NCBI GenBank assembly: GCA_963707485.1
Contig: CAVPQS010000077.1
Span: 646-64,645, forward strand
Length of the DNA stretch: 64,000 nucleotides
Source of the DNA: an uncultured bacterium
GTDB taxonomy: Bacteria > Zixibacteria > MSB-5A5 > CAIYYT01
Direction of reading: 5' to 3'
The notes beneath the pieces are model-generated. The model was given only the letters and a program-made list of their open reading frames with translations. It made no database searches and was not told where the DNA came from. Made by a program: the position numbers and the translations under genes. Below, one piece after another: positions 1,471 to 23,766 of the stretch (positions within the stretch are counted from its first letter, which is position 1; every line of letters starts with the position of its first letter).

Positions 1471-1662
1471 ATGGATGCTCAGCTTCCAGAATGTCTCAAG
1501 TGCAAGGTCGGACATTTGCTCCCGTTATCGGATTATGGGCGCGACGGCGCTTCGATTCGGTATAAAGCGTGGGCTTGTTCGAACCCGGAGTGTGGTTTCA
1601 ACCTGCGGATAGATAACGGTGAAATCTCTTTCGGCAAGACCATCTTGCCTTCCAACAAGTAA
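1471..1662 (+). CDS. Small zinc-ribbon protein (CxxC ... CxxC)
   Basis: 63-aa ORF with CLKC...CSNPEC spacing typical of a zinc ribbon. Confidence 0.4.
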   Translation: MDAQLPECLKCKVGHLLPLSDYGRDGASIRYKAWACSNPECGFNLRIDNGEISFGKTILPSNK

Positions 1663-1687
1663 TTGCTTTCCCCGCGCGTGAGGTGAC

Positions 1688-2611
1688 ATGCGCTTTAATC
1701 CCCTCAATAACTTGACCCTGAAAATCGGGGCGGTTTTGCTTGCCCTATTGCTTTGGGTCCATGTCGCTACGAATAAGACTTACGAGCACCAGATTGATTT
1801 GCAGCTCAAGGTCGTCAACGTGCCAACTGGCTTGGCGCTTGTCAGCGACGTACCGCCAATAGTGACGGTCAGAGTCAAGACGACCGGCAAGCAATTAATT
1901 GCGCTTTCTACGAGACAGCATTCATTGGCAATTGACGCCTCGGAGTATCGGGAGGGTTCATTTGAACGCGACCTGACTGATCGCGATGCCGCCACGGCCT
2001 TTGACCAGGCGTACGAACAGGTGGGAATTGTTTTCCCGCGCAAGCTCTTCTTCCGATTCGAGCGTGAAACGGCAAAGAACCTGTTGGTTGAACCGAAGAT
2101 TCGAGCGGTCGCTGGACCGGGATTCATAATTGTGGGAGACCCTAAGGTCGAACCGGAAATGGTCACAGTTACCGGACCAAATTCGAGCGTTCGCGGGCTG
2201 AAGGCAATAGAGACGCTGCCAGTCGAGTTGAACGGTCTAACGACGTCGACTTCGCACAAAGTGGAGCTTCTCCTTCCAGATTCACTTCACCTGACATTAG
2301 GCGATTCGGCAGTTACAGTATCGTTCACTATCGAACCGATGGTAGAACGGACTTTGTCCGACATTGCGGTCAAAGCCCCGCGCGATTTCAATAATTCGCG
2401 ATATTCGTTTAGCCCGGCAACAATAGCCGTTCGCCTGGGATTTCCAGCATCATTGAGGGACTCGCTGGATTTCCGGCAAGTTCGCGCATCATTCTCGCTT
2501 GGCGACGACTATCGAGATTCCGTTCGCGCCGCGATTAGGTACACACTTCCCGCGAATGTCACCGTGATCGGCAACTCGCTCGACTCAGTGCTGATATTGC
2601 AGCGTTTATGA
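1688..2611 (+). CDS. YbbR-like domain-containing protein (CdaR-like)
   Basis: N-terminal transmembrane helix (IGAVLLALLLWVHV) followed by repeated beta-rich V-x-V-x-V segments characteristic of YbbR repeats. Overlaps the downstream tsaD by 4 bp. Confidence 0.6.
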   Translation: MRFNPLNNLTLKIGAVLLALLLWVHVATNKTYEHQIDLQLKVVNVPTGLALVSDVPPIVTVRVKTTGKQLIALSTRQHSLAIDASEYREGSFERDLTDRDAATAFDQAYEQVGIVFPRKLFFRFERETAKNLLVEPKIRAVAGPGFIIVGDPKVEPEMVTVTGPNSSVRGLKAIETLPVELNGLTTSTSHKVELLLPDSLHLTLGDSAVTVSFTIEPMVERTLSDIAVKAPRDFNNSRYSFSPATIAVRLGFPASLRDSLDFRQVRASFSLGDDYRDSVRAAIRYTLPANVTVIGNSLDSVLILQRL

Positions 2612-3609
2612 TCGTTCTCGGCATCGAAACTTCCTGCGACGAGACAGCAGTTGCGGTTGTCAAAGACGGCAAGCATGTGCTGGCCGACTTCGTCTATTCT
2701 CAAGTTGAGCATACTGAGTTTGGCGGGATCGTCCCGGAAATCGCTTCGCGGCAGCAGTTACGCAAGATTACGCCGGTATTCGAGAGCTGCAAGAAAGCCC
2801 ATCCAATATCTCCGGAGACCATTGATTGTATCGCGGTGACACGAGGACCGGGTTTGATCGGATCGCTAATGGTCGGGCTAAATTTTGCCAAGGCACTGTC
2901 TTATGGCTGGAATATTCCGCTGGTAGGAATTAACCATCTGGAGGGACACATATTCGCGAATTTACTGGCGGACAATTCGCTGAAGCCGCCGTTTATTACT
3001 CTGATTGTCTCCGGTGGGCATACGCTGCTGGTCAGGGTCGACGACTGGTGCAGCTACACGATGCTTGGCTCGACTCGCGACGATGCCGCCGGCGAAGCAT
3101 TCGACAAGGTCGCCAAACTATTAGGTCTCGGGTACCCGGGCGGTTACAAGATCGATCGACTCGCATCAGTGGGCGACCGCGAATATCATCGCTTCCCCAA
3201 GTCGCAGTTCAAAAAGGGCGAATACCAATTCTCGTTTTCGGGGCTGAAGACGTCGGTAGCGATCTATCTCAAGGGCAAGTCCGAGGAGTTCAAAATAGAG
3301 CGGCTGAATGACATCTGCGCTTCGTTCCAAGAGCGGGTTGTCGATATGCTGGTCATGCCGACGCTTAATGCGGCGCTGGATCATGGAATTGACTTAATAG
3401 CCGTTGGTGGCGGGGTTGCTGCGAATTCGCGCTTACGCGAAGCTTTTGCGGAACGGGCTGCCGCACATGGAATCCGAACTTTGTTTCCCGACATCAAGTT
3501 TTGCACCGACAACGCAGCGATGATTGCCTCGGCGGGATATTTCCGACACAGCCGCGGTGAGCGTGCGGATCTGGCTTTAACTGCAGTACCGTATTTGCCA
3601 CTTTCGTAG
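2608..3609 (+). CDS. tsaD: tRNA N6-adenosine threonylcarbamoyltransferase TsaD (Kae1/Gcp family)
   Basis: MIVLGIETSCDETAVAVV...HLEGHIFA...SGGHTLL... are canonical TsaD motifs. Length 333 aa. Confidence 0.92.
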   Translation: MIVLGIETSCDETAVAVVKDGKHVLADFVYSQVEHTEFGGIVPEIASRQQLRKITPVFESCKKAHPISPETIDCIAVTRGPGLIGSLMVGLNFAKALSYGWNIPLVGINHLEGHIFANLLADNSLKPPFITLIVSGGHTLLVRVDDWCSYTMLGSTRDDAAGEAFDKVAKLLGLGYPGGYKIDRLASVGDREYHRFPKSQFKKGEYQFSFSGLKTSVAIYLKGKSEEFKIERLNDICASFQERVVDMLVMPTLNAALDHGIDLIAVGGGVAANSRLREAFAERAAAHGIRTLFPDIKFCTDNAAMIASAGYFRHSRGERADLALTAVPYLPLS

Positions 3610-3653: not shown

Positions 3654-4493
3654 TTAGACATTATAGGGGCAATAGCGGTAGTCAGCGACGCCTTTGGTGC
3701 AATACATCAGCCGGCGCGGCTGTGAACGACCGTCGCCATTGACGGAATCGATCAACAGTCCATGCTGACAACGTAAGCACTTTGCCGGCTGACCGTCGAT
3801 CATGGTGCCAGTGAATTTTACTTGTCGAAACTGGCTTGTCGTTATTGGTGTCTCGCCCGATTCATACAACTTCTCGATAGATCCGACTCGCTCAAACACG
3901 AATCTGCCGCGATCGATCTCCAGTTGGCCCTTCAAATCGACCTCATCGCCAACAGCCAACTCCGCCCGTTCATACACATCGAATGATAGACGCGCATAAA
4001 AGGGATCCAAGAACTTGTCGTAGCCAAAAATGCCTTCGCGGAAATAGAGCAAGACGCCGCGACCGGCGATTTTGAGGTTGCCGTTCTCGCCGTGATTGAC
4101 GAGCAAGGGGTTAATCGAGTGAACAGTGCCGCGAACTTCGATCCGTTTTCCCTGCAAGCTACTGACCCACTCTTCGAATTCGTCGAATTGGCGGAGAAAC
4201 TTGTCATACTCTGCCTGTTCGATTTTCAGGTCGGGTTGGTGCGATTCCTTCAGGTCATAGAAAAAGGGGCAGGAGAAGCAGTCTTTGCCGACATGCTTCT
4301 TGTCGCGATGGCATTTCTGACCGCTCTCGAATTTCTGACAGCGCCAGCGGAACGACATGCAGCCTTGGGGGAAGCAGCCCTTGTTCTTGAGAATGTGCCA
4401 TGCGGAGGTCCCGTTTTCGCGATGTTTGTGCAGCCGGTGCGGACAAAAGAAGATGTCGGACCGTTTGTAGAGATTGCGCCATTCTGTCTGCAT
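3654..4493 (-). CDS. Cys-rich hypothetical protein (putative Zn-binding N- and C-terminal clusters around a central beta-rich domain)
   Basis: 279-aa ORF. N-terminal CPHRLHKH...CFPQGC...RWRC...CH...CFSCP and C-terminal CLRCQHG...YCTKG...YCP clusters. No family recognised by eye. Confidence 0.5.
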   Translation of the reverse strand: MQTEWRNLYKRSDIFFCPHRLHKHRENGTSAWHILKNKGCFPQGCMSFRWRCQKFESGQKCHRDKKHVGKDCFSCPFFYDLKESHQPDLKIEQAEYDKFLRQFDEFEEWVSSLQGKRIEVRGTVHSINPLLVNHGENGNLKIAGRGVLLYFREGIFGYDKFLDPFYARLSFDVYERAELAVGDEVDLKGQLEIDRGRFVFERVGSIEKLYESGETPITTSQFRQVKFTGTMIDGQPAKCLRCQHGLLIDSVNGDGRSQPRRLMYCTKGVADYRYCPYNV

Positions 4494-4694
4494 ACTGAAA
4501 TAACATACGCGATATCTGAAAGCAGCTTAAGGACTTTCTCCCTACGATATGGGAGCGCTCCCACAAATTCACGCCTGCAAAATCCCCGCGCAGCCGCTGT
4601 TTCCTTTTGAACAGGGGCTCAAGCTCAATCCCAGCAACGATATAAGCGCCTGAGAAAACTTAAGTGCATCTCGGCAAAATATCTGCACAGAGAG

Positions 4695-4964
4695 ATGCCG
4701 GAGAATATGCCCGAAGGAGGAGGCGCAATGCGAGTGAAGTTCACGCTGACGATGGATGATTTGACGGTAGATGACCAGCATTACGATTCGGTCGTGATTG
4801 ACTGGGTTACCGAGGTCGAACAGCAAGAGGTGCTTGACTTGTCGCAAAAGTGGATCACTTCGCAGAATTTCCTCACCCGGAGGATGATCGGTCTGCAGCG
4901 CGTCGGCGAGTCCTCGCTGACGATCGAGCCGATCGACGAGACAATTTCATCTGATTACGAGTAG
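4695..4964 (+). CDS. Small hypothetical protein
   Basis: 89-aa ORF divergent from 3654..4493. Alternative start at MRVKF (4728). Confidence 0.35.
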   Translation: MPENMPEGGGAMRVKFTLTMDDLTVDDQHYDSVVIDWVTEVEQQEVLDLSQKWITSQNFLTRRMIGLQRVGESSLTIEPIDETISSDYE

Positions 4965-4976
4965 GGGAACGAGAAG

Positions 4977-5300
4977 ATGTTTGCCGGGTGGAAAGCGCAA
5001 CTATCGCAACTAACCGGGGAAGCGCCGGGTCGTCTCGCGGATGCGGTCGTCGCGTTTCACGGCTACTTAAGCGCCGAGTACGGACCGCTGACCGCGTGGG
5101 CGGTGTATCTCGCGATTGCGTCGCTGTTGGCGCTGTTGCTGTGGCGCCTGGTAAAGTTCTCGTTCGATGTCGTTCGCTGTGTGGCAATACCGTCGATGGC
5201 AGTCGCCCTGATCGGGGCATGGTTATCGCCACTCAGCTTCATGCACATCCTGCCGGTGGCAGCATTGGTGTTCACCGGAGTGATGGTCTTTCGAGGATAA
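4977..5300 (+). CDS. Small membrane protein (2-3 predicted TM helices)
   Basis: Hydrophobic stretches AWAVYLAIASLLALLLW and LPVAALVFTGVMVF. Contiguous with neighbouring small genes. Confidence 0.4.
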   Translation: MFAGWKAQLSQLTGEAPGRLADAVVAFHGYLSAEYGPLTAWAVYLAIASLLALLLWRLVKFSFDVVRCVAIPSMAVALIGAWLSPLSFMHILPVAALVFTGVMVFRG

Positions 5301-5368
5301 GCACGTTCTGGCAGACAGATTGGCAACACGGACTTTGAGTCGAGCAAAGCGCTCGCTGGGGAGAGACT

Positions 5369-5545
5369 ATGAGGCCGTTCAAACGCCGTAAAAGAACGAA
5401 TTGCCCGCTATGCAGCGGCAAGCTGGTGAAGGCCCAGGGCAGTATACGTTGCCCGGCATGTCGGATCGAGGTCAACGGCGATTCCTGCCGTTTCCTGAAT
5501 CTCCCGGCTTCAGTCCAGGGCGCTGCCGATAGCGGTAAGGGATAG
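5369..5545 (+). CDS. Small zinc-ribbon protein (58 aa), absent from the supplied ORF track because it is under 60 aa
   Basis: ATG at 5369, stop TAG at 5543-5545. Translation MRPFKRRKRTNCPLCSGKLVKAQGSIRCPACRIEVNGDSCRF... has CxxC-x14-CxxC. Confidence 0.4.
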   Translation: MRPFKRRKRTNCPLCSGKLVKAQGSIRCPACRIEVNGDSCRFLNLPASVQGAADSGKG

Positions 5546-5550
5546 GCACG

Positions 5551-6027
5551 ATGGATACGAATCCGCAGCGATGCCACATCTGTGGCAAAGTCATGCACGA
5601 GTTCAAGGGCGTCTATCTATGCCTACCGTGCAACGAGAAGTACGGCGACTTCTATGGCTTCTTCAATTCGGCCTCGCGCGACTACCACGAGGAAAAGGAA
5701 TATGTCATTATCGATTGCCCGGGAGTGACGATTTATGACGAATCCAATTCCCGCGTCGTGCAGGGTGTGAAATGGCACGATGATCGCGATCACTCAAAAG
5801 GGTATGAAATTGTCGGCAAACAAATATACGCGCCAAACCACACCAAGACACGCCGAGTCCCCAAGGACAAGGCAGGCAATATCAGCCGCTGCCAGTCATG
5901 TCAGGATTTCACGGTGCGTATGCGCATCTATAATTCACAGGTGGGCAAATCAGACTATCAGCAGAGTTCACCGCTCATGCCGAAGGATGCCGACAAATTC
6001 ACGCGTCCCGATATTCACGGGAAATAA
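5551..6027 (+). CDS. Hypothetical protein with N-terminal zinc ribbon
   Basis: RCHICGKVMHEFKGVYLCLPCNEK at the N-terminus. 158 aa. Confidence 0.45.
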   Translation: MDTNPQRCHICGKVMHEFKGVYLCLPCNEKYGDFYGFFNSASRDYHEEKEYVIIDCPGVTIYDESNSRVVQGVKWHDDRDHSKGYEIVGKQIYAPNHTKTRRVPKDKAGNISRCQSCQDFTVRMRIYNSQVGKSDYQQSSPLMPKDADKFTRPDIHGK

Positions 6028-6030
6028 GCT

Positions 6031-7167
6031 CTAATCTTTACAGACCGACAAGACCTGATACGGGCAAATTTTTCGCAGGATGCATGCTTCATCCGGACGA
6101 AACGCCAGAACTCTGACACTCTCCACCGGGATCTGATTCAGGTCAATATCTCCAAGTGATCTCCATTCGGCTTCCGGCCGCCAATCCGCGACTTCGGATC
6201 CGGCGTTTTGGAAGAAAGGTCGGTCGACCTCGGGCATTTGCTTGAATTCATCGATCGTTCCATAGCGAACTTCGCGACATCCGAAAGAGCCGGCAATGAC
6301 CTTGCGGAAGGCGATTCCATATGGCTCGAAGCTGTAGTAGCCATATCGCCTCCGCCAACGCATCAACGGAAGAGCATCCGGCGGACGAAGCGCGGTGAGC
6401 GAAACGACAGGATAGGCTCCCCGGATGAACCGATTCGACGCACGGATGCGATTCTCTTCGAGTATGTGGAGCAGGGCATGAAATGCCGAGCCCGGAAATG
6501 TTGATGACTTTAGAATCGAGTCGTAATAAGAGAATCGATCCTGACCGAGGAGTGGACCCTGTGCCGAGCGGGTCCAATGCGTCAGGTAGTCCCATTCGCC
6601 ACTGAGTTCGCGGCTAAACGTCATCGATCTCCAGTCGTAGTGAACGGAGTCGACAGATTTGCAGTAGCCGGCACGAAAGGAGTCATTGACGCAGGCAGGC
6701 CGGCGTGCTACGAGCTTCGCCAGGTTGCCATCTGGTCGCAGCGAGATCGGGACAAGCACTCGGGCGTGGGCTGCAAGGAATTCATCGCGCCGGTTCGGCC
6801 AGGTTTCGGCATCGACGGAATCCAAGCGGAAGAGTTGGGCTCGATCCGGGCTCAGCCGGAAACTAGACATAAGTTCGGCTGGAGAGCTAAACCCATACTC
6901 ATCAAGCTGCTGAGGCACCACAATTATCTGCCGGTAGCCGAGTCGGTTCACGAGATGCAAGACAAGCTCCCAGGTATTCTGGCCAATCGATGTTAGGAAA
7001 AGGTAGTTTTCGTCTTTTAGCGAATGAACGGTGGTTTCGGTAGCCTGAACCCAGTTGTCGCGAGCGGACGGGCGGCGCGATTGACGCGAGTTGAGCAGAA
7101 CGCAGGTTTTGGCTGCGGACACATCCCGAAAGAACTGGTCGGGAGATATTTCGTTGATCAATTTCAT
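6031..7167 (-). CDS. Hypothetical protein, 378 aa, Trp/Arg-rich, no recognisable domain
   Basis: Long uninterrupted ORF, convergent with the 5551 gene. No motif that can be assigned from sequence alone. Confidence 0.5.
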   Translation of the reverse strand: MKLINEISPDQFFRDVSAAKTCVLLNSRQSRRPSARDNWVQATETTVHSLKDENYLFLTSIGQNTWELVLHLVNRLGYRQIIVVPQQLDEYGFSSPAELMSSFRLSPDRAQLFRLDSVDAETWPNRRDEFLAAHARVLVPISLRPDGNLAKLVARRPACVNDSFRAGYCKSVDSVHYDWRSMTFSRELSGEWDYLTHWTRSAQGPLLGQDRFSYYDSILKSSTFPGSAFHALLHILEENRIRASNRFIRGAYPVVSLTALRPPDALPLMRWRRRYGYYSFEPYGIAFRKVIAGSFGCREVRYGTIDEFKQMPEVDRPFFQNAGSEVADWRPEAEWRSLGDIDLNQIPVESVRVLAFRPDEACILRKICPYQVLSVCKD

Positions 7168-7312
7168 TTGGCTGAGCGCCCTAACCGTCAGTTTGGCTGT
7201 CTCAGTATGTTAATTGGGCGCAAAAAAATCAACCCGCGTCTTCACAGACGCGGGTTGCAAGATCACTTTACTATCAGGCGATAAAGCCTGTGCAAAGCAG
7301 AAGGGGGCAAGA

Positions 7313-7618
7313 TTACTTCTTGCCGGCTTTCTTTGTACCCTTCTTGGCAGTCGACTTCTTAGCGGTCGACTTCTTGGCCGTGCTCTTCTTAGCTGCTGCT
7401 TTTTTCTTCACGGGACCCTTCTTTAGGTTTAAGGTTGCGGCTTTAGCACGAACGGCGTCGATCGATCTGCCGAGACGCTTGGCGATCTCGCGTGCGGTTT
7501 TCGATTTGTAGTTCGCCTTAAGAAAAGCGACGTTAGCAGTCGACCACTCGTTCGCACCCTTCTTTGTTGACTTCCTATTAGTTGATTTCTTAATCGTTTT
7601 TTTCTTCGCAGTAGCCAT
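7313..7618 (-). CDS. Lys/Ala-rich histone H1-like (Hc1-like) nucleoid protein with KKSTAKK tandem repeats
   Basis: MATAKKKTIKKSTNRKSTKK...AAAKKSTAKKSTAKKSTAKKGTKKAGKK. The DNA carries 15-bp tandem repeats (gtcgacttcttagcg x3). ORF could start at 7648, but the Met at 7618 is more plausible. Confidence 0.6.
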   Translation of the reverse strand: MATAKKKTIKKSTNRKSTKKGANEWSTANVAFLKANYKSKTAREIAKRLGRSIDAVRAKAATLNLKKGPVKKKAAAKKSTAKKSTAKKSTAKKGTKKAGKK

Positions 7619-8454
7619 TTTTACCGCCACAACGAACTCCTCTCGCAATGGTTCAAAGGTTGATCATTTGGATTTATCTTAGAGGCGGGATGATCAAATG
7701 ATCTACCCATCTGTGATTGCAAGAAGTCAACATCAGCCGCGGAGCGCCGTGCTGATGCTGGAGAGACGAGTTCGCGACGATCATTGTTCTTCATCTTCGC
7801 TTGTCTTTTTGTTCTGTCGCTCATCTTTCGAACTCGTGTCTTCAGCATCTCTGCCGGTTTTAAAATCAATCGCATGTAAGAGTGAATGTCGGAGCAAACT
7901 AAATCAACAAAAACTTTTTGGTATTCCGCAAAAAAACTTCAGATCGCTCTCGACTCGTTCCTGAATAATTTCACTTTCTACATCTCTTCATCGGAATTTT
8001 CAAAATCATCTTGAACATTTCTGATGATTTTGTGCTGTAAATCTGCGGTGATCACATTAACGGCGAGATCGTAATCCATGTTCAGCCGAAGTCGGCGATC
8101 TTCTGAAGGGAGAAGACATCTCATGAGAAAGGAGTGGAAAGTTTTTTTGATTTTTTCAATTCGAGCGCTTGACAACAATTCGATTCCGTTGAAAAATCGC
8201 GAAGAGAGTCGGCTGAATTTTCGCAAAGGCATGATCGGGCAGAACGTCACGCGCCGATTTTAGCAGCGAATTCCGACTCGAAGCAAAACTGTTCCGATCG
8301 AGGCGACACAGACGAGGCGAATCCGCGCTACCATTCGATTTCGATTCCCGTCGGGTGTCGACAGGCTCCAGAGAGCATGAATATTGGCTACAATGAGGCT
8401 CCAAGAATTTGCTTGACAATTCCGCGCCGGAGGAATTTCTTGCTGTTCGCTAAT

Positions 8455-8528
<74 letters not shown>

Positions 8529-8873
8529 TTTTTCTTTGCCTGCTGGACTTTCTTCCCGGCCTCGCTGCACAGATTTAGGTCAATGCGCGGAGATTCAGAG
8601 TCTTGCCCACTCCGGGAGGTATCTCCTGTTTCTGCTGCGAATTCGAATCCACGAGCAGTGGGTCATCGATAAAGTAAAGAGTCATGTTGCCTGGTGAAGG
8701 CTGCCCGACTGTCGGAAATGTCTAAAGTCGCGGCCAACCGTGTAGATTCGGGTTCCGTTGCCAATTGACGAGCCCGTGAACCGGACGCGGCTGGTTGAGA
8801 CGATTTCCTGCGACAGGATCGGCGACAGCGCGATGGTTGGACTGCGATAGCAAGCGGGACGCTGGCAATCGAA

Positions 8874-9608
8874 CTAATCGGTATCGTACTTTTTGCGTTC
8901 GCTCTTGGACACTTCGGTTGAAAGGGGATATATCTGGATTTCGGGAATCTGGGCGTAAGCCGGCGCATCGGCGACATCGCCAATCAGTCTGGCAACATCG
9001 GCGGTTTCGAGCAACTGCTGTCGTTTTGGATCGCCAGAGGAAACAATCTCACCCGCAGAGTTCATGTTATTCGGGAAGACGCTGGTAACGCGAATTTTAA
9101 ATGGCTTGAACTCAAGACGCAGCGAGTCGGCCAGACCCTGGAGCCCGAACTTGGAGGCGCAATAGGCGGAGATATTAGCCTGACCCTGTTTACCTCCGAT
9201 CGAATTAATGAAAACGATCTGCCCATGTGATTTTTTTAGGAGCGGAGCGGCTGCCTTGGTCATTAGGTAGTGCGATTTCAGGTTTACCGAGATGATTTGG
9301 TCCCAGGAAGCCTCGTCAAATTCCTCGATTGCACCCATCAAGAAAATGCCGGCATTATTTACAAGCAAGTCGAGTTGGCCAAACGATTCGCGGCAGATAC
9401 GCGCGACCTCGATACAAGTCCCCGCCTTGGTGATGTCGCCGGAAACGTACTTCACCTCAGGATGATCCGTCAAGATGCGAAGGGCATTTTGGGCCAATTG
9501 CTTTTCGAGCCCGACCAAGAGGAGTCGAAATCCGCGCGCCTGCAATTCCTTTGCCGTAGCCAGTCCGAGTCCCCGCGATCCACCGGTAACTATTGCCACA
9601 CGTTCCAA
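8874..9608 (-). CDS. SDR-family oxidoreductase (sepiapterin-reductase-like context)
   Basis: VAIVTGGSRGLGLATAKEL Rossmann motif, NNAG, YCASK (YxxxK). Confidence 0.85.
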   Translation of the reverse strand: MERVAIVTGGSRGLGLATAKELQARGFRLLLVGLEKQLAQNALRILTDHPEVKYVSGDITKAGTCIEVARICRESFGQLDLLVNNAGIFLMGAIEEFDEASWDQIISVNLKSHYLMTKAAAPLLKKSHGQIVFINSIGGKQGQANISAYCASKFGLQGLADSLRLEFKPFKIRVTSVFPNNMNSAGEIVSSGDPKRQQLLETADVARLIGDVADAPAYAQIPEIQIYPLSTEVSKSERKKYDTD

Positions 9609-21855: not shown

Positions 21856-23766
21856 TTGAGTCAAAGAGCCGATTTGAACAGGAGGAATTCGATGGATCCC
21901 AATGAAATTCGGGAGTTCCTGAATCATATTGAATTATTCAAAGACCTCGACCACGATGAAAGAGAGTTGCTCGTTGCCGGCATTGTGGTGCATGAATACG
22001 AAGCGCACACGCTGCTTTTCGAAGAGAACACAGCGCGTTTAGAGATGTATATCATCTTTCAGGGGGAGATTGAGCTGCTTAAGCGGACGCCTTACGGCGA
22101 GGACGCGCGGCTGACGGTATTTTCACGGTTTGATTTCTTTGGCGAAGGCGCAATCATGGAAGACTACCCGCACAACACCTCAGCGCGAACTCTGCTCAAA
22201 TCGACTATTCTCACTATCAGCCGCGATCGTTTTTACGAGTTGTCGCAAGAGCGGCCGACAATCGGACTCAAGTTAATCTCCCGAATCGCCCGGGTTATAT
22301 CGCGGCGGATGCGTCAGGCCAGCACGCGAGTGGTAAACGTTGCCGCGCAGTACGTATCGGGTCAGACGCGGTCAGAGCACGACTTGCTCGGTGACCGCGA
22401 GGTGCCGTCGGAATATCTCTACGGTATTCAAACCATGCGAGCACTGGAAAACTTCAATATCAGCGGAATCTCGCTGGCATACTATCCGGATTTTATCAAT
22501 GCACTTGCCATGGTCAAGATGAGCGCTGCGAAAGCGAATATGGAACTGGGGCTGCTCACCGAGCCGGTGGGGCAAGCGATCATACAGGCTTGCACCGAGA
22601 TCAGGCACGGCCGTTGGCATACGCAATTTGTCGTGGACATGATTCAGGGCGGCGCCGGGACCTCGACCAACATGAATGCGAATGAAGTTATCGCCAATCG
22701 TGCCCTTGAAATCCTCGGGTATGAACGCGGCGATTACAAGCATTGCCATCCCAATAATCACGTAAACTTGTCGCAGTCGACAAATGACGCTTATCCAACG
22801 GCATTAAAGATCGCACTCATCAACGCCAACGGCAACCTGGTGGCAGTGTTGAAGAAGCTGATTGCATCTTTCTACGCGAAAGCGGAGGAGTTCAAGGGCG
22901 TCATCAAAATGGGGCGAACGCAGTTGCAGGATGCTGTGCCGATGACCATGGGGCAGGAGTTTGAAGCTTATGCGGTGATGCTGGAAGAAGAAATAGATCG
23001 ATTGAATCAGAATGCCTCACTCTTCCTGGAAGTCAATATGGGCGGGACGGCGATTGGCACTGGGATCAATGCCGATCCGCGCTATTCGAGCATTGTGATC
23101 AGCCATCTTCGCGAAATCACCGGTATGGATATAAAGCTCGCGAAAAATCTGGTGGAAGCGACGCAGGATACGGGCGCCTTCGTGATGTATTCGTCGGCGA
23201 TCAAGCGGCTGGCAGTAAAGCTTTCAAAGATTGCCAACGACCTGCGGCTGTTGTCATCGGGTCCGCGCGCGGGGCTCAATGAGATCAATTTGCCGCCGAT
23301 GCAGCCGGGATCGTCAATTATGCCGGGCAAGGTCAACCCGGTCATTCCTGAAGTGGTGAATCAGATTGCCTTTCTGGTAATCGGCAATGACCTGACTGTA
23401 ACCATGGCTGCCGAGGCCGGCCAGTTGCAGCTAAATGTAATGGAGCCGATCATAGCTCACAGCATATTCGAGTCAATCGAAGTGCTCAAAAACGGCATGT
23501 TTACTCTCAAGCACCGCTGTATTGACGGGATTACGGCCAATATCGAACATTGCCGCAAGACAGTGCTTAATTCAATTGGATTGGTGACGGCTCTTAATCC
23601 TGTTTTAGGGTATGAAGCTTCGACCGAGTTGGCAAAGGAAGCGCTTCGGACGGACCGCAGCGTCTACGACTTGGTTTTGGAAAAAGGTCTCCTTTCGCCG
23701 GCGCAGCTTGACAAACTCTTATTACCGGAAAACATGATCCAACCCATCGATCGAGATAATGCTTGA
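21856..23766 (+). CDS. aspA: Aspartate ammonia-lyase (fumarase/aspartase class II) fused to an N-terminal cyclic-nucleotide-binding domain
   Basis: Residues 15-160 or so read ...LFKDLDHDERELL...FGEGAIMEDYPHNTSARTL..ISRDRFYEL..RIARVISRRMR, a Crp-type cNMP-binding domain. The rest matches aspartase: LLGDREVPSEYLYGIQTMRALENFNISG ... GSSIMPGKVNP signature. Confidence 0.8.
   Translation: MSQRADLNRRNSMDPNEIREFLNHIELFKDLDHDERELLVAGIVVHEYEAHTLLFEENTARLEMYIIFQGEIELLKRTPYGEDARLTVFSRFDFFGEGAIMEDYPHNTSARTLLKSTILTISRDRFYELSQERPTIGLKLISRIARVISRRMRQASTRVVNVAAQYVSGQTRSEHDLLGDREVPSEYLYGIQTMRALENFNISGISLAYYPDFINALAMVKMSAAKANMELGLLTEPVGQAIIQACTEIRHGRWHTQFVVDMIQGGAGTSTNMNANEVIANRALEILGYERGDYKHCHPNNHVNLSQSTNDAYPTALKIALINANGNLVAVLKKLIASFYAKAEEFKGVIKMGRTQLQDAVPMTMGQEFEAYAVMLEEEIDRLNQNASLFLEVNMGGTAIGTGINADPRYSSIVISHLREITGMDIKLAKNLVEATQDTGAFVMYSSAIKRLAVKLSKIANDLRLLSSGPRAGLNEINLPPMQPGSSIMPGKVNPVIPEVVNQIAFLVIGNDLTVTMAAEAGQLQLNVMEPIIAHSIFESIEVLKNGMFTLKHRCIDGITANIEHCRKTVLNSIGLVTALNPVLGYEASTELAKEALRTDRSVYDLVLEKGLLSPAQLDKLLLPENMIQPIDRDNA

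Follow-up and report, generated by a model that had tools for sequence, protein, structure and literature searches.

ADP-ribosylation of DNA and RNA in bacteria is known mainly from toxins, such as DarT, Scabin/ScARP and RhsP2, which are checked by dedicated hydrolases. DarT is the toxin of the DarTG system, a thymidine or guanosine ADP-ribosyltransferase acting on single-stranded DNA (ssDNA), with the macrodomain protein DarG or a NADAR protein as its antitoxin partner; AbiGi (PF10899) comes from the lactococcal abortive-infection system AbiG. Among proteins with a SLOG-type Rossmannoid, LOG is a cytokinin riboside 5′-monophosphate phosphoribohydrolase, and the SLOG domain of ThsA senses isomers of cyclic ADP-ribose. 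Here we analyse a 64,000-nucleotide stretch of the genome of an uncultured Zixibacteria bacterium (GenBank assembly GCA_963707485.1, contig CAVPQS010000077.1, positions 646 to 64,645), hereafter the window, in which six uncharacterised genes lie at 3654–7167 between tsaD (2608–3609, with a Pfam TsaD match) and a Lys-rich histone-like gene (7313–7648, minus strand). One of the six, encoding a protein of 378 amino acids (aa) at 6031..7167 on the minus strand (Unit B), represents a large undescribed family with a new predicted architecture, in which a DprA-like SLOG domain is joined to an ADP-ribosyltransferase (ART) domain resembling those of DarT and AbiGi. The other five genes (Unit A) form a cassette with a history of its own. 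The 378-aa gene is the more interesting of the two results.

An AlphaFold2 model of the 378-aa protein, built from a 43-sequence alignment, has a pLDDT of 92.8 and a pTM of 0.89 and consists of a five-stranded beta-alpha Rossmannoid (residues ~20–160, encoded at 6688..7110, minus strand) followed by a mixed beta domain (residues ~190–378, encoded at 6034..6600, minus strand). The N-terminal domain of the model has a DprA-type Rossmann fold, with ShosA as its top structural match. For the C-terminal domain the best structural matches are four DarT structures (7omv, 7yk3, 8baq and 7omu, scoring 8.4, 8.2, 8.1 and 8.0), followed by Tpt1 (7.3), SopF (6.0), the DUF952 protein CC0527 (5.9), the Rhs toxin TreX (5.4), Scabin (5.3), OspC3 (5.2) and ArtA (5.2). 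All of these belong to the ART superfamily, and by comparison of the model DarT is the closest. The earlier note on this DNA, written from the letters and open reading frames (ORFs), had left the 378-aa protein outside known families; its predicted structure clearly places it, and with it the whole family, in the SLOG/DprA and ART superfamilies.

Conservation within the family was followed in 250 full-length members, in which R127, D128, H197, E281, Y302, E334 and R336 are strictly invariant and S27, W39, P282, W329 and E332 (248 of the 250) nearly so. The motifs of the C-terminal domain are H197-W-T-R200 on strand 1, [S/A]256-x-[T/S]258, F-E281-P-Y283-G, Y302 and W329-x-x-E332-x-E334-W-R336. 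In the model, H197 ends the first strand, [S/A]256-x-[T/S]258 lies on the next and E332-x-E334 opens a late strand. DarT enzymes are of the H-Y-E class, DarT1 having a dispensable Ser at the position of the Tyr (PMC11543638). In the 378-aa family, position 256 is S, A, G or C, and the order and approximate spacing of H197, residue 256 and E334 fit the H-S-E arrangement of DarT1, or an H-S-E/ExE site; H197, S256 and E334 are the candidate ART triad.

The N-terminal domain carries N26-S27-R28-Q-S-K, S60-x-G-x-x-T-W-E67, an aromatic residue before R127-D128, and P140-x-S-x-R-x-x-G147. DprA proteins have two ssDNA-binding signatures, G-S/T/A-R and F/L/Y-x-x-R-N/D, which have been contrasted with the LOG motif PGGxGTxxE (PMC3950713), and in ShosA it is the DprA Rossmann domain that binds ssDNA (PMC11961720). 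The equivalent of the first signature in the 378-aa family is N26-S27-R28 (N in 194, S in 243 and R in 217 of the 250 sequences). The second is matched by the invariant R127-D128, the residue at −3 being W in 129 sequences, M in 27, L in 15 and F in 8; the clade of the window has a one-residue insertion before R127. The LOG motif is missing from the alignment, in which the segment S60-x-G62-x-x-T65-W-E67 has another spacing and no PGG. An S-x6-acid-x3-aromatic spacing, also read from the alignment, resembles that of the DprA motif SGxAxGIDxxAH. Where the earlier note saw no recognisable catalytic motif in the 378-aa protein, the invariant motifs of the 250 members thus fit DprA and ART domains.

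Profile comparisons give no membership in the corresponding described families. PF14487 (DarT, formerly DUF4433) matched none of the 43 aligned members at E ≤ 1, nor any of 10 more at E ≤ 5. AbiGi (PF10899) matched 4 of the 43 at E < 1, the best reaching 15.5 bits where the gathering score is 22.4, and in P0105, the sole member inspected, the match falls on the FEPYG strand. The DprA model PF02481 matched a single member of the 43 (residues 23–169, model positions 33–174 of 212) with 14.3 bits against a cut-off of 29.6. AbiGi has been counted among the ART-like families and described as R-S-ExE-like (PMC12522546).

Several likenesses and differences set the 378-aa family beside each of these systems. 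As in DarT, the strand-1 His and late-strand Glu are invariant, the middle residue is small as in DarT1, and the substrate is predicted to be of the same class, single-stranded nucleic acid. Unlike DarT, the 378-aa protein has its ART domain joined to a DprA domain, carries an E-x-E doublet and the invariant R336, and is encoded without a DarG macrodomain or NADAR partner, by a gene that occurs once per locus in housekeeping contexts across the phylum and not in defence islands or mobile elements. AbiGi is the only Pfam family with repeated, if sub-threshold, matches to the C-terminal domain, and the 378-aa family shares with it the E-x-E and R200; it differs in having an extra DprA domain and neither an AbiGii partner nor an association with plasmids or phages. 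With DprA/Smf and ShosA (PF02481) the family has in common that both ssDNA-binding signatures are recognisable, S27, R127 and D128 being invariant or nearly so, whereas it lacks the SAM domain and C-terminal winged helix, has Asn for the motif-1 Gly, and carries its DprA domain fused to a predicted enzyme rather than as a RecA loader or antitoxin. Like ThsA, the SIR2–SLOG protein of Thoeris, the 378-aa protein joins a SLOG Rossmannoid to a domain predicted to use NAD+; here, however, the domain order is reversed, the effector is an ART-type domain in place of SIR2, the SLOG domain belongs to the DprA clade and not the YpsA/ThsA clade, and there is no ThsB or TIR-like partner. We found no description of a DprA–ART fusion in the searchable literature, whose coverage does not extend to the 2015 SLOG survey, and no report there of ARTs from Zixibacteria. 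Because the family falls outside DarT, AbiGi and canonical DprA and is not described in that literature, its predicted architecture is new, and so is the family.

The family is large. A word-indexed search returned 217 homologues of the 378-aa protein, all named ‘hypothetical’ and with no Pfam domain, and a profile run exhaustively against 1.84 billion cluster representatives matched 2,069 at E ≤ 1e-3, of which 1,328 reach E ≤ 1e-30, or ~1,300 clusters at 50% identity. Among the top 150 matches essentially all are full-length two-domain proteins of 360–400 aa. As these ~1,300 clusters have no Pfam or NCBIfam model, a description of the family would annotate thousands of ‘hypothetical proteins’. 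Longer members contain no informative domain fusions; the Arg/Pro-rich N-terminal extension of one (P0269, 659 aa) was considered as a fusion and set aside, having no Pfam match and the look of a miscalled start. Trp (2.4%) and Arg (10.3%) are enriched in the 378-aa protein, as the earlier note remarked, to a modest degree.

Neither a partner gene nor a defence context recurs around the family. When one genome per species was scanned, relatives of the 378-aa protein turned up in 104. The labels of these species genomes are for the most part Zixibacteria, a few being LCP-89, Latescibacter or UBP14, and many automatic ‘Ignavibacteria’ labels are unconfirmed; the gene occurs once per returned locus. 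Several metagenome-assembled genomes (MAGs) with Zixibacteria-type synteny (loci L012, L014, L018, L019 and others) are titled ‘uncultured Ignavibacteria’, ‘Alphaproteobacteria’ or ‘Planctomycetota’, which are probably automatic or placeholder labels and no sign of wide taxonomic spread. All-against-all clustering of the ORFs within 4 kb at 81 loci revealed no universal neighbour, the commonest being tsaD and a glycosyltransferase family (14 loci each) and ybbR (11 loci). A Pfam census of 137 adjacent ORFs gave SpoIID (10), glycosyltransferases (7), SNF transporters (5), S9 peptidases (5), LPG synthase (5) and TsaD (4), and none of the 25 families that matched at least 3 of these ORFs is a Macro, NADAR, ARH or defence family. 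The 378-aa gene is also the fastest-evolving of its neighbourhood: the protein is 61% identical to its orthologue at L012, the closest species locus, against 91% for TsaD, and at codon positions 1 and 2 the gene changes at ~4 times the rate of tsaD for the same genome pairs (comparisons with L012, L014 and L095).

The history of the 378-aa gene separates it from the other five genes of the interval, which encode proteins of 279, 78, 107, 58 and 158 aa. We examined the 80 best loci of the species scan by tblastn of all window genes. The 279/78/107/58/158 set stands beside the 378-aa gene in 13 of them, complete in 11 (L012–L016, L018–L021, L031 and L035) and ended by the contig in two (L017 and L045); in the other ~67 inspected loci the cassette is not adjacent. 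In four of these (L034, L037, L039 and L040) the homologue of the 378-aa gene and tsaD–ybbR converge as immediate neighbours, the arrangement of the window minus the cassette. Since tsaD abuts the 378-aa gene directly in other lineages, either the cassette was gained between the two genes or it has been lost from that position. More distant homologues of the 378-aa gene adjoin an acetyltransferase gene, an aromatic lyase gene and purL, or genes for an aldehyde dehydrogenase and a peptidase.

The cassette in turn occurs by itself. Starting from the 158-aa family, a scan of metagenomes yielded 36 loci with GC contents of 0.33–0.64, in 30 of which the 78/107/158 trio is co-linear, four of the six exceptions lying on truncated contigs. 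The 279-aa gene is divergently upstream in 17 of the 36, and the 378-aa gene is adjacent in 4 and not nearby in 32. The 58-aa gene is confined to the closer versions of the cassette and is missing from the distant ones. Cassettes without the 378-aa gene include L112, L119 and L092–L094, the last three with the order 279-like, then 76, 104 and 136 aa, then an ABC ATPase. The interval therefore very probably holds two units and not a single module, units that are neighbours solely in one clade of Zixibacteria. The earlier note’s suggestion of an undescribed functional module stands for the five cassette genes and fails for the sixth, and conservation of the cluster as a unit is likewise seen for the cassette and its trio, the 378-aa gene being independent of them in most lineages.

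The cassette comprises a core of three genes (78, 107 and 158 aa), an accessory gene (58 aa) and the 279-aa gene as a frequent fifth component. The 279-aa gene (3654..4493, minus strand) is divergent from the operon of small genes. Its product is modelled with a Cys/His-rich region (residues ~15–80), a long helix, an OB fold of the nucleic-acid-binding type (~115–210) and a C-terminal CxxC...C...C zinc ribbon; the OB fold of the model is a five-stranded barrel that can be superposed on ssDNA- and RNA-binding OB domains. The Cys/His clusters noticed earlier at both ends of the protein are conserved in the family alignment (C17, H22, H33, C40, C45, C52, C61, C72 and C75; C239, C242, C265 and C275). 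The internal domain of MCM10, RPA70 DBD-C, archaeal RPA and the anticodon-binding domain of class IIb aminoacyl-tRNA synthetases combine an OB fold with a zinc module and bind single strands; the 279-aa protein has no sequence similarity to them. It differs from them in its unique 80-residue N-terminal region with seven Cys and two His, in being bacterial and confined to ~30 sequence clusters, and in having a membrane protein and small zinc ribbons as its partners. At one locus (L010, positions 8001–9403 of JGI Ga0452210_000022) a homologue with 39% identity overlaps the 3′ end of a gene for a CCA-adding enzyme or poly(A) polymerase; it stands there without the rest of the cassette, and a gene for a DUF2085 membrane protein comes after it. 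This neighbour and the tsaD neighbour in the window give a faint hint of an RNA or tRNA connection.

The divergent intergenic region (4494..4727) is expected to hold the promoters of both the 279-aa gene and the small-gene operon; we found no inverted repeats in it, and a sigma-70 scan gave no consensus-like site and a result no better than shuffles. Just upstream of the ATG at 4728 lies the Shine–Dalgarno sequence GGAGGAGG. This sequence, homologues that start with MKVKF and public gene calls of 78 aa indicate that the first gene of the operon, previously read as 89 aa (4695–4964), most likely starts at 4728 and encodes 78 aa (4728..4964, plus strand); the gene itself is real. Its product is acidic and soluble (net charge ~−12, computed for the 89-aa reading) and matches nothing in the PDB or Pfam. 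No other protein of the region is as well conserved: it is 99% identical at L012, where the 158-aa protein is 96% and both the 279-aa protein and TsaD are 91% identical; it is 56–93% identical in 30 of the 36 metagenome loci and has 27 invariant columns in an alignment of divergent lineages.

Always downstream of the 78-aa gene in homologous loci, the 107-aa gene (4977..5300, plus strand) encodes a small membrane protein, as the earlier note proposed, with 2–3 hydrophobic helices by hydropathy and the conserved motif K-[FL]-S-F-D-V-[VL]-R-x-V. The CxxC...CxxC ribbons also reported there are present in the two remaining products. The 58-aa protein (5369..5545, plus strand) is a basic zinc-ribbon protein with the pattern CPLC...CxxC...C, its Cys residues conserved among 24 homologues. 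The 158-aa protein (5551..6027, plus strand) has an N-terminal CxxC...CxxC ribbon and a body with CPG-[VA]-T-[IL]-YD, GVKW, H and RCxxCQD-x-TVRMR in succession; C24, C27, C56, H97, C114 and C117 are invariant in the family alignment (A3; 32 homologue clusters), and those of the body (C56, H97, C114 and C117) form a potential second Cys/His site. In Pfam the 158-aa family has generic zinc-ribbon matches alone, all sub-threshold. A profile match to ribosomal protein eL34 in the PDB (E 0.029; query 45–135 against eL34 13–103) was rejected as weak and probably a zinc-ribbon artefact. The 279-aa and 158-aa genes use preferred synonymous codons 2–3 standard deviations above the average long ORF of the window, which may mean high expression.

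Two lines of evidence show that all six ORFs, and a 63-aa ORF outside the interval, are genuine genes evolving as coding sequence. First, each has orthologues in other genomes, and a contig of an NCBI MAG (GCA_049663865.1) and a Logan contig carry the identical gene set (100%), with the second gene called as 78 aa. Second, substitutions against L012 are biased to third codon positions, with 0.075, 0.038 and 0.434 substitutions per site at positions 1, 2 and 3 of the 58-aa ORF, 0.038, 0 and 0.231 in the 78-aa ORF, and 0.019, 0.013 and 0.452 in the 158-aa ORF. An ORF scan reproduced the coordinates and the flanking tsaD and histone-like genes of the earlier note, whose description of the genes as uncharacterised also holds: no model of Pfam, NCBIfam, PADLOC or PHROGs reached its threshold for any of these proteins, and sequence and profile searches of the PDB with the 378-aa, 279-aa, 158-aa and 78-aa families returned no significant match. 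The cassette adds a second set of unannotated families, tightly conserved and with a known fold in one member.

The joint explanation towards which we lean slightly is that two native units, each inherited vertically on the Candidatus Zixiibacteriota chromosome, would lie here side by side: the cassette and a stand-alone nucleic-acid ART enzyme. In the 378-aa protein the N-terminal DprA-type pocket would hold a base of ssDNA (or RNA), and the C-terminal DarT-like domain (H197, [S/A]256, E332-x-E334) would ADP-ribosylate that nucleic acid, using NAD+. As no hydrolase or antitoxin gene stands alongside, we infer that the activity would be kept in check by the polypeptide itself or by the supply of substrate; on this reading the function would be endogenous and not that of a toxin–antitoxin or defence system. 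The prediction is wholly computational and coherent. That the 378-aa protein is a nucleic-acid-directed ART working without an antitoxin, with the substrate, activity and regulation predicted above, is a tentative proposal to which we give somewhat less than an even chance. The broader claim is doubtful, namely that the family forms an undescribed class of nucleic-acid ARTs in which base ADP-ribosylation, free of antitoxin and eraser, is endogenous and regulated in many Zixibacteria. If the proposal is right, the protein would be the first candidate housekeeping nucleic-acid ADP-ribosyltransferase, and ADP-ribosylation might mark intermediates of replication, repair or transformation. The cassette products would assemble into a zinc-dependent complex, associated with the membrane and binding single-stranded nucleic acid; any more specific role for that complex is unlikely to be named correctly from the present evidence.

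Six points weigh against this joint explanation. The assignment of the putative ART triad comes from strand order and spacing. At motif 1 the 378-aa family has Asn where DprA has Gly, the Ser and Arg being kept. SLOG domains may also be small-molecule sensors or hydrolases (PMC9503650). A rate ~4 times that of tsaD is equally typical of conflict genes and of loosely constrained housekeeping genes. For the cassette, nucleic-acid binding is suggested by a fold resemblance in one of its five proteins, and the complex is conjectural. Finally, the cassette and the 378-aa gene have stayed contiguous through an inversion, so that in this clade a functional link between them retains some plausibility.

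The role of the SLOG domain is where the readings of the 378-aa protein diverge. SLOG domains have been described as sensors or processors of ADP-ribose derivatives and occur fused to effectors (PMC9503650), and the sensor-plus-effector layout and fast evolution of the 378-aa protein would suit a ligand-gated effector, its SLOG domain sensing a nucleotide-derived signal and its ART domain acting as a NADase or protein modifier, so that nucleic acid would not be the substrate. Such an effector is rather improbable, since the SLOG domain is of the DprA type, with both ssDNA-binding motifs kept and the LOG motif missing, and no signal-generating partner such as a TIR protein or cyclase recurs beside the gene; moreover, the nearest ART structures are DNA-modifying DarTs and not NADases such as RES.

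The same conserved residues bear on a second reading, in which the 378-aa protein would be a writer–eraser or pseudo-toxin whose ART domain has a protein or small molecule as its target and whose SLOG domain, antitoxin-like, hydrolyses an N-glycosidic or ADP-ribosyl bond. A fused eraser would fit the lack of a separate hydrolase gene nearby, E67, R127 and D128 could be catalytic, and SLOG enzymes of the LOG clade cleave N-glycosidic bonds, with processing of ADP-ribose derivatives predicted for SLOG domains (PMC9503650). The conserved residues, however, coincide with the non-catalytic binding motifs of DprA, the catalytic motif PGGxGTxxE is missing, and the literature searched holds no precedent, which makes this a very unlikely account.

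Synteny in the clade of the window bears on a reading that joins all six genes into one single-stranded-nucleic-acid module, in which the OB-fold and zinc proteins would present or protect the strand modified by the 378-aa protein. The whole block is contiguous in the 13 species loci and is inverted between tsaD and the short-chain dehydrogenase/reductase (SDR) genes in five species loci (L015, L018–L020 and L031) and in L003, with the breakpoints outside it. The 158-aa and 378-aa genes converge on a 3-bp gap (6027–6031), or on a 4-bp overlap (9176–9179) in the relative L005, so that there is no space for a terminator and the two transcripts must overlap. Both the 279-aa and the 378-aa proteins, moreover, have predicted folds of ssDNA binders. 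Against this, ~67 of the 80 loci with the 378-aa gene have no nearby cassette and 32 of the 36 cassette loci no nearby 378-aa gene, the convergent orientation means that the two are not co-transcribed, and their rates differ, 61% identity for the 378-aa protein standing beside 87–99% for the cassette proteins in the same genome pair. We therefore give a six-gene module only a slim chance.

The earlier note had read the interval as a candidate accessory island or a stress or defence module, naming GC or codon-usage deviation and phage or defence-island context as signs to look for; none was found. GC is 0.52–0.56 in the interval and 0.50–0.54 around it. Against a reference of 38 long window ORFs (mean synonymous codon score −1.122, standard deviation 0.051), the 279-aa, 158-aa and 378-aa genes score −1.011, −0.968 and −1.164, host-like or better. 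The flanks hold genes for an FG-GAP protein, ybbR, tsaD, tRNA-Arg, two or three SDRs, PTPS, a flippase, a glycosyltransferase and the cystathionine enzymes beta-synthase and gamma-lyase, with no integrase, transposase or defence gene near the interval. PADLOC gave no match below E 0.009, no relatives came from profile scans of viral contigs with the 378-aa, 279-aa and 158-aa family alignments or from tblastn searches of phage and plasmid collections with the 378-aa protein, and a BFVD fold search returned nothing beyond single-domain phage DprA/SLOG proteins. The exact cluster of the 378-aa protein carries the NCBI name ‘Candidatus Zixiibacteriota bacterium’. The six genes are native to the Zixibacteria chromosome and not a foreign island, and the lack of a family by eye together with mixed orientation was here no pointer to one. 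Although the genes are small and uncharacterised, in mixed orientation and without family matches, stay contiguous through the inversion, lie 1.3 kb from a tRNA-Arg gene and include a fast-evolving one with a toxin-like fold, a single horizontally acquired accessory island or defence/stress module is highly improbable given the flat GC, host-like codons, housekeeping flanks and negative searches, the mutual independence of the 378-aa gene and the cassette in most lineages, and the occurrence of the 378-aa gene once per locus in housekeeping contexts across 104 species genomes, where defence systems would be patchy.

Outside the interval, the third zinc-ribbon ORF that the earlier note likened to the other two (1471..1662, plus strand, 63 aa) is a real gene with a different company. 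It forms a tight unit with ybbR and tsaD (1471–3609), in which a 4-bp overlap joins the ybbR stop to the tsaD start, and co-occurs with them at 71–97% identity, including at a distant locus free of the cassette (L065, 71%). No paralogy is detectable among the 63-aa, 58-aa and 158-aa ribbons. In the closest species the 63-aa protein is 97% identical and YbbR 85%; no cdaA is seen upstream of ybbR within the window. On the other side, a gene-poor stretch of ~800 bp (7650–8530) with a lower GC of 0.45–0.47 ends at tRNA-Arg(ACG) (8454–8529), which is the sole Rfam match and has no integrase near it. Elsewhere in the window, at 21856–23766, a 636-aa protein carries a cyclic-nucleotide-binding domain at its N terminus, joined in an unusual fusion to a class II fumarase/aspartase (Lyase_1 and FumaraseC_C).

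The histone-H1-like protein encoded between this stretch and the 378-aa gene is Lys/Ala-rich, 111 aa long and of net charge +32, with a helix-turn-helix-like core, and matches phage ‘transcriptional regulator’ PHROGs (phrog_323, E 6.5e-11). In about nine related loci its gene immediately precedes the 378-aa gene, with the block in either orientation; as a conserved partner of the 378-aa gene it was set aside, this adjacency being limited to the close clade. In the gap between the two genes, a strong intrinsic-terminator-like hairpin on the minus strand (7230..7257), with a 12-bp stem and a T run, indicates that the 378-aa gene is its own transcription unit.

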